The notes beneath the pieces are model-generated. The model was not told the origin of the DNA. It saw only the letters and a list, made by a program, of their open reading frames with translations, and did not search any database. Below, piece by piece: positions 58,375 through 64,000 of a stretch of 64,000 bases of DNA; position 1 is the stretch's first letter, and each line of letters starts with the position of its first letter. The DNA is taken from positions 217,371-281,370 of the forward strand of contig CAWIDF010000008.1 in assembly GCA_963834885.1 (NCBI GenBank), written 5' to 3'. The translations under genes were made by a program, and so were the position numbers. The stretch comes from an uncultured Solirubrobacterales bacterium. Its GTDB lineage: Bacteria > Actinomycetota > Thermoleophilia > Solirubrobacterales > Solirubrobacteraceae.

Positions 58375-59112
58375 ATGCCCGCCCAGGCTTACGCCGGCAA
58401 GGAATGCGTCTGCCAGCTCCGCAGGGGGATCTGCGATCAGTCCTGCGTGCAGGGGATGCTCGAGACGCCGTTCTACATCGCGTGCCTGCGCCTGACCGGC
58501 CGGCGGTGCGTGGTCGTGGGCGGCGGCGAGGTCGGGCTGGAGAAGGTCGAGGGGCTGCTGGCGTGCGACGCCGACGTGATGCTGGTGTCGCCCGAGGCTC
58601 ATCCGGAGCTGGTCCAGCTCGCGCTCGAGGGTTCGATCCGGTGGGAGCGCCGCGAGTACGCCGGCGCCGCGGACCTCGACGGGGCGTTGATCGCGATCGC
58701 CGCCACCGACGACACCGATCTGAACATCCGCGTGTTCGAGGACGCCGAGGCGCGGGCGATGCTGGTCAACGTGGTCGACGTGCCGCCGCTGTGCAACTTC
58801 ATCCTGCCGGCGATCGTGCGGACCGGACCGCTCGCGGTGGCGATCTCGACCGCCGGCGCCTCGCCGGCGCTGGCCAAGCGGATGAAGCGCGAGATCGCCG
58901 AGCTGTTCGGCGAGCCGTACGCTGTGCTCGCGGTGCTACTGAACGAGGCCCGGGGGTGGGCGAAGGCCACGCTCCCGACCTACCAGGACCGCAAGGAGTT
59001 CTTCGAGGGGATCGTCAACGGCGAGCCCGATCCGGTCGAGCTGCTGCGCGCGGGCGACATCGACGCGGTCCGCGACCTGATCGCGGACGCGCAGCGCGCC
59101 GTCGCGGTGTGA
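58375..59112 (+). CDS. Precorrin-2 dehydrogenase / sirohydrochlorin ferrochelatase (SirC/Met8/CysG-N-like) with Cys-rich N-terminal extension
   Basis: [44 protein letters not shown]; core begins at ATG 58456. Confidence 0.9.
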
Positions 59113-59606
59113 GCTCCGAGCTCACGCACCTGGATTCATCTGGCCGCGCCCGCATGGTCGACGTGGGCGAGAAGCCCGCGACCGAGCGGCGCGCGGTGGC
59201 GCAGGCTGTCGTGCGGGTTTCACCCGAGACCGCTGGGCGGGTTCAGGCCGGCGATGCGCCCAAGGGCGACGTGCTCGGGGTGGCGCGGATCGCGGGGATC
59301 CAGGCGGCGAAGCGCACCGCGGAGCTGATCCCGCTGTGCCACCCGCTCGCGCTGACCTTCATCGGGGTGGAGGGCTCGATCGAGGTTTCGGACGGCCGGA
59401 TCGTCCTGACTGCGGAGGCGCGGACGACGGGGCCGACCGGCGTCGAGATGGAGGCGATGACCGCGGCCAGCGTCGCGGCGCTCACGGTCTACGACATGGT
59501 CAAGGGGATCGAGCGGGGCGCCGAGATCGCCGAGGTCGTGCTGCTCGAGAAGTCGGGCGGCCGCTCGGGGCTGTGGCGCAGGGGTCCCGCCGAGAATCGG
59601 CCTTAG
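59109..59606 (+). CDS. moaC: Cyclic pyranopterin monophosphate synthase
   Basis: [53 protein letters not shown]. Confidence 0.96.
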
Positions 59607-59613
59607 GAGCGGG

Positions 59614-59658
59614 GCCTGGTCGAGAAACGCAAGCCCACGTTGCGTTTCTCGACCAGGC
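59614..59658. terminator. Perfect 19-bp inverted repeat between convergent genes (bidirectional terminator or REP-like)
   Basis: GCCTGGTCGAGAAACGCAA-gcccacg-TTGCGTTTCTCGACCAGGC. Confidence 0.7.
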
Positions 59659-59668
59659 TGCCGTGGGT

Positions 59669-60526
59669 CTAGTAACGAAGCGCTTCGGACAGCGCGTCGA
59701 GGGCGCCGCCCTCCGCGGCCATGTCCGCGTGAAAGGGCGGGGAGATCGAGGTCAGGCCGCCGTCGACGACGAGCGTCGTGCCGGTCACGTACTCCGCGCC
59801 CGGTGAGAGCAGGAACAGCACGCACTCGGCGACCTCGGCCGCCGTGCCCATCCGCTTCTTGGGGATCTTCGGCAGCACAGTGTCGAGCGAGGGGACGCGC
59901 CCGGTGGCGTAGAAGTAGCTCGAGGAGTCGGTCTCGATGATGCCGCCGTTGACCGCGTTGACGTTGACGCCGCGCGGCGCCAGCTCGACCGCCATGTAGC
60001 GCGCCCACGTCTCGATCGCCGCCTTGGCCGAGCCGAGGTTGGCGTAGGTGGGGAACGAGCGGATGCTGCCGTAGCTCGACAACACGACGACCCGGCCGCC
60101 CTCGCGAGGCATCAACCGGACCGCGCGCTGCGTCCCGACCACGAACGCGCGCACGTTCAGGTTGAAGGTGCGCTCGAGGTGGTGGGGCTTCAGGTCCATA
60201 AAGTGGTGGAAGTTGCTCGCGGAGGCGTTGGAGACGAAGAAGTCGAGGCGGCCGAAGTGCTCCTGCACCTGGTCGAACATCGCCTCGATGTCGTCGAGGT
60301 TCTCGAGGTCGGCTCGAATCGCCAACCCGGAGCTGCCCAGGCGCTCGGCCTCGGTCACGACCTCGCGTGCCAGTTCCTCGTTCTGCTTGTAGTTGACGAC
60401 CGGGATCGCGCCGCGCGCGGCCAGCCGCAGCGCCAGCTCCTTCCCGATCCCGCGGGAGGCGCCGGTGATCAGCGCGACCTTGCCTTCGAATCCGCGGCGG
60501 GGGTCAGGTAGGAGGGGGTCGCTCAT
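59669..60526 (-). CDS. chcA: 1-cyclohexenylcarbonyl-CoA reductase (ChcA)-like SDR enoyl reductase
   Basis: TGASRGIG, VVNYK.N, FVSNA, LSSYGSIRSFPTYANLGSAK (Y-x6-K), RYMAVELAP, NAVNGG, ISPPF: closely colinear with S. collinus ChcA as remembered. Confidence 0.8.
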   Translation of the reverse strand: MSDPLLPDPRRGFEGKVALITGASRGIGKELALRLAARGAIPVVNYKQNEELAREVVTEAERLGSSGLAIRADLENLDDIEAMFDQVQEHFGRLDFFVSNASASNFHHFMDLKPHHLERTFNLNVRAFVVGTQRAVRLMPREGGRVVVLSSYGSIRSFPTYANLGSAKAAIETWARYMAVELAPRGVNVNAVNGGIIETDSSSYFYATGRVPSLDTVLPKIPKKRMGTAAEVAECVLFLLSPGAEYVTGTTLVVDGGLTSISPPFHADMAAEGGALDALSEALRY

Positions 60527-61647
60527 CGCTTCAACAAATCCCGGGCGATCGTGGTCTTCTGGATCTCGGCGGTGCCTTCCTCGAACCGCTGGGCGCGCGC
60601 ATCACGGTACACGCGCTCGATCGGGCTCGTCGACCAGTACCCGAGTCCGCCGTGGACCTGCAGGGCGCCGTCGGTCACCCGCTGGAGCATTTCGCTCGCG
60701 AACAGCTTCGCCATGGCGGCCTCCATCGGGGCGCGCCCCGTCTCCTCCCACGTCGACGCGGCGTGCCTGACCAGGCGCCGGGCGGCCTCCAAATCCGTAG
60801 CCATCTCGGCCAGCTTGAACGCGATCGCCTGGCGCTCGGCGATCTTCTTGCCAAACGTCTCACGCTCCTGGGCGTAGACGAGGGCCAGGTCGAGCGCGCG
60901 CTGCGCGAGGCCGACGCACGTCGTGGCCAGCGAGATCCGGCTCGGACCCAGGAACCCGCTGAGGGCGATGTCCACGCCTTGGCCCTCCTCGCCGAACCGG
61001 TCGGCGACCGGCACCGGCGCGCGGTCGAACACGATGTGGCCGTGGTCGGTGCCGCGCACGCCCATCGTCTCGGCCATCTCTCGGTTGTCGATGCCCTCGC
61101 CGTGGGACGGGACCATCAGCGCCACCGTCCCGTCCGTGCCGCGGGTGCCCTCGACCCGAGCGAAGGTCATCAGGTAGTCGGCGATCGTGCCGAACGTGAT
61201 CAGGTGCTTCTCGCCGCTCAGGTAGTACGTGTCTCCCTCCCGGACGACGCTGCAGCGGATGTCCGCGCCGCTGCCGGCCCCAGGTTCGGTCAGCGTGAAC
61301 GCGACCTTGATCTCGCCGGCCACCGCGGGCTTGATGAACCGCTCGCGCTGGTCGTCGTTGGCGTGCGAGTCCATCGGGCGCCAGATGCCGTTGGCGACGT
61401 GGACGATCATCCGCAGCGACGCGTGCGACATCGAGAACAGCTCGAGCAGCTCGAGGTAGCTCGTGAACGGGATGCCGGCGCCGCCGTACTCCACGGGCGC
61501 CGCCAGCCGCAGGTATCCGCGGTCGCGCAGCTCATCCCACAGCGACAGCGGGACCTTGTGCTCGCGCTCGATCAGCTCGGCCCATCGCTCGCCCTCGTTC
61601 TCGACGTAGGTGCGGACCTCGCCGTGCAAGGTGGTGGTGGCGGTCAT
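60523..61647 (-). CDS. Acyl-CoA dehydrogenase (AnsL/PlmL-like position)
   Basis: FTLTEPGAGS, GEKHLIT, RETFGKKI, QVHGGLGY, YRDARAQRFEEGTAEIQ. Confidence 0.93.
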   Translation of the reverse strand: MTATTTLHGEVRTYVENEGERWAELIEREHKVPLSLWDELRDRGYLRLAAPVEYGGAGIPFTSYLELLELFSMSHASLRMIVHVANGIWRPMDSHANDDQRERFIKPAVAGEIKVAFTLTEPGAGSGADIRCSVVREGDTYYLSGEKHLITFGTIADYLMTFARVEGTRGTDGTVALMVPSHGEGIDNREMAETMGVRGTDHGHIVFDRAPVPVADRFGEEGQGVDIALSGFLGPSRISLATTCVGLAQRALDLALVYAQERETFGKKIAERQAIAFKLAEMATDLEAARRLVRHAASTWEETGRAPMEAAMAKLFASEMLQRVTDGALQVHGGLGYWSTSPIERVYRDARAQRFEEGTAEIQKTTIARDLLKR

Positions 61648-63158
61648 GCGGTCACGAAATCGCGGGCTTGCTCGCGCAGGACGAACTTCTGGATCTTGCC
61701 CGACGGCGTCCGGGGGAGCGTGTCGACCAGCTCCAGACGCTCGGGCCAGTACGTCTTGGCGACGCGGTGTGAGTCTAGGTACTCGAGCATCGTGTCGAAC
61801 TCCAGGTCCCCGACCACGAACGCGCAGGCCCGCTCGCCCAGCCGGTCGTCTGGCATGGCCACGATCGCCACATCACGCACGGCCGGGTGGGCGTGCAGCA
61901 GCTGCTCGATCTCGGCCACCGGCACCTTCTCGCCGCCGCGGTTGATCACGTCCTTGACGCGACCCGTGATCCGGACGTAGCCGCGAGCGTCGATCCGAGC
62001 CAGGTCGCCGGTCCGGTACCAGCCGTCGTCGGTGACGGCCTCGGCGGTCAGATCGGGGCGATTCAGATAGCCCTCGAACAGACAGTCGGTGTGGACCTCG
62101 AAGTTGCCCTCCTCGCCGGTGGCGAGCGCGACACCGGAATCGTCGACGACGCGCAATTGCACCCCGGCGAGAGCCCGGCCGTCGCTTCCCCAGGCGAGCT
62201 CGGGCGGGTCGCCGGGCGCGAACGCGCAGCCCAGGCAGCTCTCGGTCGTGCCCCACGCGCCGCCGACCTCGGCGTCGAGGACCTCGCGCGAGTGGCGGGC
62301 CAGTTCGCGCGGGATGGCGGCGCCGGTAGCGACGAACGTTCGCAAACGCGACGGCTGCTCGCCCGTCTCGGAGGCCACCCGGGTGAGGTCGGCCAGGAAC
62401 GGCGTGGCCGCCTGGACGAACGTGACGCCGAAGCGCTGCATGGCCTGCAACCCGGTCGAGGCGTCCCAGACCTCCTGGAGAACCAGCGTCACGCCCAGCC
62501 GGATCGCCACCCACATTCCGTACAGGAAGCCGGTCTGGTGGGCGAGCGGCGAGGGCACGTAGACCACGTCGCCGGCGCCCAGTCCGAAGTGCTCGATGTG
62601 GTGATCGGCGGCGCGGGTGAGCACGTCGTAGCGGTGGAGCGCTCCCTTGGGCTCACCGGAAGTCCCTGACGTGAACAGCAGCTGGGCAAGCCGATGCGGA
62701 TCACCCGCCGACGAGGGCCTCGGCGAGCCGGCGGAAACCAGGCACTCGTACTCGTCGGGCAACACGACGAGGTGCTCGACGGACGGAAGGCCGGCCGCCA
62801 TCTGCGCGTAGTCGCGGCCGCGGAAAGTGTCCGGGACGAACAGGACGCGGGCGCGGCTCGAGCCGAGCATGAACGACAGCTCGCGCTCGCGGAAGATCGG
62901 CATCAATGGCTCGCACACCGCGCCGGCGCGCAGCACGCCAAGTGCGATCGTCACGAACTCCAGGCGATTGGGGAGCTGGAACGCCACGGGCTCACCCGGG
63001 AGCACGCCGAGCCGCCCCAACGCTGCCGCGACCCCGTCGGCGTCGTTCTTCAAAGCAGCCCAGGTCAGCTCGCGCACCGATCCGTCGGCGCTGATCTCGA
63101 CGACGGCTCGCTCGCCCGGCCGCTCGCGGGCGTGTCGGTCCAGATCGCCGAGGATCAT
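61644..63158 (-). CDS. AMP-dependent CoA ligase, cyclohexanecarboxylate-CoA ligase (AliA/AnsK)-like
   Basis: PLMPIFRERELSFML, FTSGTSGEPKG, WGTTE, YRTGD, GRVKDVINRGGEK, PSGKIQK; ATG overlaps upstream TGA. Confidence 0.9.
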   Translation of the reverse strand: MILGDLDRHARERPGERAVVEISADGSVRELTWAALKNDADGVAAALGRLGVLPGEPVAFQLPNRLEFVTIALGVLRAGAVCEPLMPIFRERELSFMLGSSRARVLFVPDTFRGRDYAQMAAGLPSVEHLVVLPDEYECLVSAGSPRPSSAGDPHRLAQLLFTSGTSGEPKGALHRYDVLTRAADHHIEHFGLGAGDVVYVPSPLAHQTGFLYGMWVAIRLGVTLVLQEVWDASTGLQAMQRFGVTFVQAATPFLADLTRVASETGEQPSRLRTFVATGAAIPRELARHSREVLDAEVGGAWGTTESCLGCAFAPGDPPELAWGSDGRALAGVQLRVVDDSGVALATGEEGNFEVHTDCLFEGYLNRPDLTAEAVTDDGWYRTGDLARIDARGYVRITGRVKDVINRGGEKVPVAEIEQLLHAHPAVRDVAIVAMPDDRLGERACAFVVGDLEFDTMLEYLDSHRVAKTYWPERLELVDTLPRTPSGKIQKFVLREQARDFVTA

Positions 63159-64000
63159 ATGGCCGGCACCGTGCCGGACACCGCCGCCGGCACGCCGAGG
63201 GCGTTCATGTGGTCGAGGAACTCGGGATAGGAGATCCGGTACGCGTGCGGGTAGGACAGCTCGGTCACGCCGGACGCGATCGACCCCGCCACGGTCAGCG
63301 CCATCAGCACCCGGTGGTCGTTGAACGAGGACAGGTTGGCCCCGCGCAGCCGCGGCACGCCCTCGAAGGTCATGTCGTTGCCGTCGAACTCGATCCTCGC
63401 GCCCATCTTGCGCAGCTGGAGCATCGACGCTACTCGGTCGGACTCCTTGAGCCGGACGTGGGCGACGTGGCCGAGCGCGCTGCGCCCGCGGGCGCGGGCG
63501 GCCAGCACGGACAGGATCGGGACCATGTCGGGGATGTCGCGGCAATCGAGCGGGCCGCCCTCCGGCGGGGTGCCGTCGTGGTCCATCGAGATCGAGTGCT
63601 CGTCCTCGGCGATCCGGAACGGGACGCCCGCGGCCATCAGGTTCTCGAGCACGGCCGCCTCGGGGTGCCCGGCGATCGTGGTCGGGCTGCGGAAGGTGAC
63701 CTTGGACGGGTGCAGCGTGCACGCGGCCAGCCCGAACATGGCCGAGCCCAGGTCGGCCGGAAGCGTGACGTTGCCGGCGTGGGGTCGCTGGTCCGGCTCG
63801 ATGTAGAACTCGCGCCAGTCCTCGCGCGCTGAGACCTCGAGGCCGAACTGACGCATCATGTCGATCGTGAGCTCGAGGTAGGGGCGCTCGTTGAGCTCGC
63901 CGCGCACCTCGACCACGGTCGGCTCGCTCGCGTACGGCGCCAGCATGAGCAGGCCGGAGATCCACTGGGAGAGCGTGCCGTCGATCCGGATCCGCCCGCC
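63155..64000 (-). CDS. EPSP-synthase (AroA)-fold protein, AnsJ-like; 5' truncated by window edge
   Basis: IPDMVP, RLKESDR, NDHR, SYPEF; open frame to 64000 reading IDGTLSQWISGLLM...GELNERPY. Confidence 0.85.
   Translation of the reverse strand, partial: GGRIRIDGTLSQWISGLLMLAPYASEPTVVEVRGELNERPYLELTIDMMRQFGLEVSAREDWREFYIEPDQRPHAGNVTLPADLGSAMFGLAACTLHPSKVTFRSPTTIAGHPEAAVLENLMAAGVPFRIAEDEHSISMDHDGTPPEGGPLDCRDIPDMVPILSVLAARARGRSALGHVAHVRLKESDRVASMLQLRKMGARIEFDGNDMTFEGVPRLRGANLSSFNDHRVLMALTVAGSIASGVTELSYPHAYRISYPEFLDHMNALGVPAAVSGTVPAI

Follow-up and report, generated by a model that had tools for sequence, protein, structure and literature searches.

A putative shikimate-to-cyclohexanecarboxyl-CoA-type operon without AnsM in an uncultured member of the Solirubrobacterales

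The window analyzed in this study is a stretch of 64,000 nucleotides from an uncultured Solirubrobacterales bacterium (GenBank assembly GCA_963834885.1; C8:217371-281370, contig CAWIDF010000008.1), whose 6.25-Mb assembly consists of 17 contigs and is 94.6% complete. At the right end of the window, which has a G+C content of about 70%, four genes on the minus strand encode, in this order, a paralogue of 5-enolpyruvylshikimate-3-phosphate synthase (EPSPS), a coenzyme A (CoA) ligase, a protein of the acyl-CoA dehydrogenase (ACAD) fold and a short-chain dehydrogenase/reductase (SDR). The best overall explanation for this gene set, to which we assign a probability of roughly 0.6, is an operon of the type that leads from shikimate to cyclohexanecarboxyl-CoA (CHC-CoA) and whose product primes the synthesis of omega-alicyclic fatty acids. 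The cassette comprises:

63155 to 64000 in the window, full gene to 64495 (L001:4155-5495), minus strand: AnsJ-like EPSP-synthase paralogue, 446 aa; full-length PF00275 match of 267.8 bits
61644 to 63158, minus strand: AnsK-like acyl-CoA ligase, putative shikimoyl-CoA synthetase, 504 aa; AMP-binding and AMP-binding_C domains
60523 to 61647, minus strand: AnsL-like ACAD-fold flavoprotein, 374 aa; all three ACAD domains present
59669 to 60526, minus strand: ChcA-like SDR enoyl-thioester reductase, 285 aa; adh_short_C2 match of 203.8 bits

The four genes form one translationally coupled operon. The stop codon of the EPSPS gene and the ATG of the ligase gene at 63158 overlap in a 4-nt ATGA (63155-63158) that can be read directly in the sequence, and the ligase/ACAD and ACAD/SDR overlaps (61644-61647 and 60523-60526), likewise 4 nt each, follow from the gene coordinates. 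We regard the four reading frames as real genes because their G+C content at third codon positions is 0.94. Only the C-terminal 281 aa of the EPSPS paralogue lie within the window; its start is a TTG at 64495, uncertain by about 30 nt. A 784-aa open reading frame (ORF) in the program-made list was rejected as a gene in its own right, since it represents the CoA ligase plus an out-of-frame Arg/Pro-rich extension, the real start being the ATG at 63158. Coordinates and profile matches thus bear out the first-pass annotation, which had described EPSPS-like, CoA ligase, acyl-CoA dehydrogenase and ChcA-like genes joined by 4-nt overlaps.

To judge orthology, the cassettes of Herbiconiux solani, Acidothermus cellulolyticus and Streptomyces ardesiacus served as proxies for the characterized Streptomyces collinus and Streptomyces platensis proteins. 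Relative to the H. solani cassette, the J, K, L and SDR proteins are 49, 50, 60 and 52% identical, and the next paralogue in the own genome reaches 35% at most. In S. ardesiacus and A. cellulolyticus, J and K are fused; the EPSPS paralogue shares 56% identity with the EPSPS half of these fusions, and the ligase 57% with the ligase half. For the ACAD, identity to the cassette ACADs of all three proxies is 61-65%, compared to at most 32% for the other ACADs of the genome; the SDR is 52-59% identical to cassette SDRs and 35% identical to the next SDR of its own genome. At the level of sequence, the four proteins are clear orthologues of the AnsJ/K/L/ChcA cassette. Because of this proxy orthology and the gene order, which Cropp et al. 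in 2000 and Palaniappan et al. in 2003 are said to have published, we assign the operon to the cassette family. The canonical order of the Streptomyces clusters, recognized in the first-pass annotation from the window alone, is matched by both synteny and 49-65% identity to the proxies.

The operon has the four protein families, their order, the translational coupling and the FabL-like SDR in common with the S. collinus set ansJ-ansK-ansL-chcA-ansM and with plmJK-plmL-chcA-plmM. As in these ansatrienin and phoslactomycin sets, the EPSPS paralogue adjoins the CoA ligase, to which it is fused elsewhere; unlike in plmJK, the two are separate genes here. The operon also differs from both sets in lacking an AnsM/PlmM-type FadH flavoenzyme genome-wide and in having no polyketide synthase (PKS) or nonribosomal peptide synthetase cluster around it. 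In S. ardesiacus, JK-ACAD-SDR lie within a cluster of ketoacyl synthase (KS), CLF and ACP genes, with no AnsM within 10 kb. A. cellulolyticus 11B (L110:13022-23015) encodes a fused JK and an ACAD, followed by three unrelated genes (a permease and a two-component system), an SDR, a FadH-like reductase and a ketoacyl synthase; to our knowledge, alicyclic lipids have not been reported from this thermophile. Similar to the stand-alone cassettes of Alicyclobacillus, Sulfobacillus and H. solani, our operon is free of polyketide genes, and priming of type II fatty acid synthesis (FAS-II) is the presumed fate of the product. The H. solani operon (EPSPS-ligase-ACAD-SDR-OYE/Pyr_redox) shows matching 4-nt couplings and has no polyketide genes within 10 kb; its fifth gene, encoding an old yellow enzyme (OYE) and Pyr_redox protein of 773 aa, directly follows the SDR gene and has no counterpart here. 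Cyclohexyl-C17:0 is listed as possibly present in the description of the genus Herbiconiux (PMC10011130). Sister Solirubrobacterales cassettes, e.g., those of ‘Conexibacter’ sp. S30A1 and DBS9H8, have an identical J-K-L order and share 63-73% identity with ours in this core, but they carry a luciferase-like (LLM) gene upstream and/or AnsM downstream, have no ChcA genome-wide and occupy another chromosomal site. A search of a plasmid collection yielded ordinary aroA only and no match to the cassette.

The genome contains three PF00275 genes: a probable aroA on C1 with the canonical PADKSISHR motif, the cassette copy and a murA-like gene on C4. In a phylogenetic tree, the cassette-linked EPSPS proteins form a single clade apart from EPSPS/AroA representatives and the genome's own AroA (SH-aLRT 99). 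This split and the separate aroA gene led us to reject the cassette copy as the housekeeping aroA. When compared to 1.84 billion representative proteins, the EPSPS paralogue retrieved a limited set of sequences with 42-53% identity and 328-469 bits, several of which are fused to a CoA ligase (981-1029 aa), and below this set ordinary EPSPS proteins at no more than 40% identity and less than 290 bits. EPSPS-ligase fusion homologues number in the hundreds. Alignment with Escherichia coli AroA shows that the equivalents of K22, R124, D313, E341, R344, H385 and R386 are retained, that S23 is replaced by Y and S197 by E, and that one residue of the S169/S170 pair is deleted. Judged by these residues, the carboxyvinyl-transfer/PEP side of the protein looks intact and the shikimate-3-phosphate side remodelled. 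The best NCBIfam match of the SDR is the enoyl-ACP reductase FabL (254 bits, cut-off 328), and its Y-x6-K motif reads PTYANLGSAK; both would be expected of an enoyl-thioester reductase.

AnsM and PlmM of Streptomyces carry out a 2,4-dienoyl-CoA-type reduction. We found no AnsM orthologue in the whole genome, nor in the 33 kb past position 64000. It is also missing from four sister metagenome-assembled genomes (MAGs) with the four-gene form, while a five-gene relative yields a 53% match at its cassette. Three Oxidored_FMN genes are present, namely two generic FadH/OYE Fe-S flavoenzymes at C3:626134-628428 and C14:320300-322288 and an OYE fusion on C11, and their products are only 26-36% identical to the cassette AnsM proteins of relatives, H. 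solani and A. cellulolyticus. The stretch between chcA and moaC consists of a hairpin and moaC, with no remnant of AnsM. The absence of AnsM is a trait of the lineage and not an assembly gap. In line with the first-pass annotation, no ansM-like gene follows chcA, where the hairpin is succeeded by the convergent moaC. The same annotation had allowed for an AnsM outside the window; what lies past 64000 is the rest of the EPSPS gene, a nucleotidyltransferase gene, mogA, ccmABC and hemACD, and the gene is found nowhere in the genome. The OYE fusion (C11:136538-138925) is a 795-aa ORF with an N-terminal FAD-binding monooxygenase-like region and a C-terminal OYE domain, a layout that, judged by eye from the translation, presumably resembles that of bifunctional salicylyl-CoA 5-hydroxylase/oxidoreductases.

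The operon is bordered by the following elements:

59614 to 59658, no strand: perfect inverted repeat of 19 bp with a 7-nt loop, 100% complementary, between the chcA and moaC stops
59154 to 59606, plus strand: moaC (PF01967, 178 bits), convergent with chcA and marking the left edge of the insertion
58375 to 59112, plus strand: sirC/cysG-N (precorrin-2 dehydrogenase/sirohydrochlorin ferrochelatase), syntenic in all close relatives, preceding moaC

The inverted repeat begins 8 nt past the moaC stop and ends 11 nt short of the chcA stop on the opposite strand, and is a probable bidirectional transcript end. The moaC gene was absent from the earlier ORF picture of the window; longer spurious ORFs overlap it, so that it is overlooked in a simple ORF listing. 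Upstream of the EPSPS gene and beyond the window lie a divergent DUF6036/DUF2204 nucleotidyltransferase gene, mogA, ccmA/B/C, hemA, hemC and cobA-hemD. With the hairpin and convergent moaC at one end and divergent genes at the other, the operon has no fifth gene on either side.

In same-genus genomes without the cassette, the order is sirC-moaC-mogA-ccmABC-hemA, and moaC and mogA are separated by 28-80 bp in four of five cases and by about 1.4 kb in the fifth. Since moaC adjoins mogA in these genomes, the stretch of about 5.9 kb between the two genes is an insertion and constitutes an accessory island. The EPSPS paralogue occurs in 11 of the 37 genomes of the genus-level group, the source genome included, and in none of 24 sampled genomes from other families of the order. 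Compared with relatives, the four cassette genes show ratios of nonsynonymous to synonymous substitution (dN/dS) of 0.06-0.28, the ACAD gene being lowest at 0.06-0.14, and the flanking sirC, mogA, hemA, ccmC and aldehyde dehydrogenase genes show ratios of 0.08-0.22. All four cassette genes are thus under purifying selection, like their housekeeping flanks. Synonymous divergence (dS) between the source genome and its relatives is 0.4-0.7, alike for cassette and flanking genes; together with the low dN/dS values, this indicates that the island has been co-inherited with its surroundings since its arrival and kept by selection.

A genome scan returned at least 574 matching stretches, and we compared the best 80 of them, all Solirubrobacterales-like, together with H. 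solani (81 loci in total). The J-K-L core is present in all 81. The reductases, counted in loci not cut by a contig end, vary as follows:

ChcA only: 15 loci and the source genome
ChcA and AnsM: 14 loci
AnsM only: 11 loci
Luciferase-like oxidoreductase upstream and AnsM: 15 loci
Luciferase-like oxidoreductase only: 6 loci
None of ChcA, AnsM and luciferase-like enzyme detected: 3 loci

Variable reductases around a constant J-K-L core are the peculiarity of this family. Genomes with the AnsM/LLM forms of the cassette contain no ChcA orthologue. In a tree of J and L rooted with H. solani, the source copy falls into a five-member ChcA-only clade, which is nested in a clade of 19 members (support 100) comprising both ChcA-only and ChcA + AnsM forms at a single moaC|mogA site; across the tree, the reductase labels require at least four changes each. 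The interleaving of ChcA-only and ChcA + AnsM forms among close relatives suggests that AnsM is dispensable and does not define the product. The best NCBIfam match of the luciferase-like enzyme is an F420-dependent LLM family (151 bits, cut-off 167). In the ChcA-less cassettes of ‘Conexibacter’ S30A1 and DBS9H8, its gene (L095:9052-9981 and L100:8997-9980) lies directly upstream of the EPSPS paralogue. From its family match and position, the enzyme is a candidate non-homologous substitute for the enoyl-CoA reductase and is probably F420-dependent. Both cultured strains, S30A1 (CGMCC 1.17174) and DBS9H8 (CGMCC 1.17346), come from acid mine drainage and are acidophiles growing at pH 2-3 (PMC13272565). 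As alicyclic lipids are linked to acidophily, this lifestyle of LLM/AnsM carriers is suggestive.

The first-pass annotation had noted that the window is devoid of PKS genes, and this extends to the whole 6.25-Mb genome, in which we detected neither a multidomain nor a type II PKS. The genome has just two real ketoacyl-synthase genes with one FabH gene beside each (two FabH and two FabF). With FAS-II condensing enzymes only and no PKS, priming of FAS-II is the sole evident use of a new acyl-CoA. The route that we infer would start from shikimate (or 3-phosphoshikimate) of primary metabolism and end in a saturated or nearly saturated cyclohexane-carboxyl-CoA. Based on orthology, formation of the CoA thioester would fall to the AnsK-like ligase and elimination of the ring hydroxyls to the AnsL-like flavoprotein together with the AnsJ-like EPSPS paralogue, and the ChcA-like FabL-type reductase would use NAD(P)H to reduce alpha,beta-enoyl-CoA intermediates. 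ChcA or one of the two generic FadH/OYE Fe-S flavoenzymes might take over the AnsM step; alternatively, the step might be skipped, leaving a ring double bond. FabH would then most probably take the acyl-CoA as a primer, and the membrane lipids would come to contain fatty acids of the omega-cyclohexyl (or cyclohexenyl) type. Described Solirubrobacter species contain mainly iso-C16:0, which implies branched-primer FabH enzymes; in Streptomyces and Bacillus, enzymes of this type accept CHC-CoA as well. Reportedly, Cropp, Wilson and Reynolds in 2000 obtained omega-cyclohexyl acids amounting to up to about half of the total fatty acids when S. lividans or S. avermitilis expressed the five genes of S. 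collinus.

The confidence that we attach to the parts of this reading differs. The sequence data establish the gene content, the orthology, the coupling, the site of insertion, the purifying selection and the lack of both AnsM and PKS, while substrates, product and lipid fate are inferred. The cassette very probably represents a biosynthetic pathway to a shikimate-derived alicyclic acyl-CoA. That the product is CHC-CoA proper we consider somewhat favored, and omega-alicyclic fatty acids as its main fate are an even bet. The suggestion of the first-pass annotation that this lineage makes omega-cyclohexyl lipids holds insofar as such lipids would be the most parsimonious use of the product and no alicyclic lipids have been reported from the lineage; its weight on the latter point has to be reduced, as the lineage is uncultured and ‘not reported’ amounts to missing data rather than a negative result. 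We found no report of cyclohexyl acids in Solirubrobacter or Conexibacter in the literature.

Several further points weigh against the proposed route and fate. Without an AnsM orthologue, the canonical five-enzyme route is incomplete, and orthology was judged via proxies instead of the characterized S. collinus and S. platensis proteins. Sister lineages pair J-K-L with quite different reductases, so that the core may lead to more than one end product. No cyclohexyl acids appear in the published fatty acid profiles of Solirubrobacter (PMC10722151). In the source genome, neither a FabH nor a KS gene is linked to the cassette, and in 23 same-genus genomes FabH copy number does not correlate with cassette presence. 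This lack of correlation also speaks against a dedicated second FabH that tracks the cassette. At a single locus (L063:8915-9887, minus strand), the cassette has a divergent FabH-like gene as its immediate upstream neighbor; the match of this gene falls into two fragments in separate frames, indicating a frameshift or a sequencing error.

The serious rival to CHC-CoA and bulk lipid priming stays within the same pathway family and is, in our view, possible though unlikely: lacking AnsM, the route would end in a partly unsaturated, hydroxylated or aromatized acyl-CoA that does not serve bulk membrane fatty acids, such as cyclohex-3-enyl-, hydroxycyclohexenyl- or benzoyl-CoA (the last after one reduction and three dehydrations). 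It gains support from the genome-wide absence of AnsM in five independent four-gene MAGs, from a reductase set that shifts at least four times on the tree around J-K-L (ChcA only, ChcA + AnsM, AnsM only, LLM), and from AnsM and LLM variant genomes that have no ChcA anywhere. Against a different product stand the very close relatives in which ChcA-only and ChcA + AnsM forms interleave at one chromosomal site, the two generic FadH/OYE Fe-S flavoenzymes on hand, and the S. ardesiacus cluster, which likewise has JK-L-SDR and no AnsM within 10 kb. In a broader proposal that we consider rather unlikely, J-K-L would serve as a general unit for forming shikimoyl-CoA and removing its hydroxyls, and lineages would combine it with an SDR of the ChcA type, an Fe-S flavoenzyme of the AnsM type or a luciferase-like enzyme dependent on F420. 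The ChcA-only form would then yield a non-cyclohexane ring (e.g., cyclohex-3-enyl), or ChcA would do all four reductions.

Two other explanations are highly improbable. The cassette might be a catabolic module for cyclohexanecarboxylate, quinate or shikimate-like acids, composed of an AliA ligase, an AliB dehydrogenase and a BadH-like SDR. The best NCBIfam match of the ligase is indeed cyclohexanecarboxylate-CoA ligase (TIGR03208, 475.6 bits), and the ACAD also matches models of cyclohexane-1-carbonyl-CoA dehydrogenase, but these matches are far below the curated cut-offs (TIGR03208, 475 versus 792; NF043006, 189 versus 650; TIGR03207, 156 versus 575). The badK/badI neighbors that the earlier annotation had named as a sign of catabolism are absent: neither a BadK hydratase nor a BadI ring hydrolase nor any crotonase-family gene was found in the 10 kb to each side. 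In addition, the SDR is a Y-x6-K enoyl reductase and not a hydroxyacyl-CoA dehydrogenase, a catabolic route has no place for an EPSPS paralogue, and the orthologous set in Streptomyces sits in a polyketide-type cluster. Equally hard to credit is a decaying, non-functional remnant of a five-gene cassette. AnsM is missing here, yet present in close relatives at the same locus, as loss would predict; all four ORFs are nevertheless intact in 15 ChcA-only loci, their dN/dS of 0.06-0.28 is that of the flanking hemA, mogA, sirC and ccmC genes, and between chcA and moaC there is no AnsM remnant, a clean hairpin closing the operon.

Possession of omega-cyclohexyl fatty acids is regarded as a rare trait, found in a few acidophilic Gram-positive bacteria, and these acids are used as markers in chemotaxonomy and environmental studies. 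The Solirubrobacterales rank among the most common Actinomycetota of soils. The cassette is present in about one third of the species of the genus-level group, which, if the lipid-priming reading is true, would be a broader source of omega-cyclohexyl lipids. If J-K-L is a general module with exchangeable reductases, abundant soil Solirubrobacterales would possess an undescribed family of alicyclic lipid tails, and omega-cyclohexyl acids would be confounded as biomarkers of Alicyclobacillus or acidophiles. The pathway to CHC-CoA is still incompletely understood, and the ChcA-only, AnsM-only and F420-LLM versions of one core amount to a natural experiment on which reduction needs which enzyme. 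Compact four-gene cassettes also offer themselves for precursor-directed biosynthesis, e.g., of doramectin-type starter units.

The first-pass annotation had singled out a stand-alone cassette outside any polyketide cluster; this is not unusual, as orphan cassettes are widespread and already known. They occur in Herbiconiux, Acidothermus, Eremiobacterota and Binatia and in at least 574 genome stretches of the scan, and fused JK forms are found in Streptomyces, Crossiella, Allokutzneria, Streptosporangium, Eremiobacterota, Binatia and Acidimicrobiales. An orphan cassette has previously been noted in Sulfobacillus genomes (PMC4378227). The novelty lies in a four-gene form without AnsM that is fixed within a clade of uncultured Solirubrobacterales abundant in soil, in its clean moaC|mogA insertion and in the modular reductase complement.

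An Rfam search of the window returned zero families, and scans for sigma-70 promoters and intrinsic terminators gave no matches, as expected at 70% G+C. The DUF6036/DUF2204 nucleotidyltransferase gene between the cassette and mogA (L001:5957-6454, equivalent to 64957-65454 in window numbering, plus strand) is missing from empty sites and present in only some of the island-bearing relatives; it may have come along as a passenger when the island was inserted, and is possibly toxin-antitoxin-like. Actinomycetota normally use System II. Homologues of the System I haem export genes ccmA, ccmB and ccmC (L001:6942-9062) with no ccmE-H seen nearby are unusual for this phylum; they lie directly upstream of hemA-hemC-cobA/hemD and are conserved across the genus.

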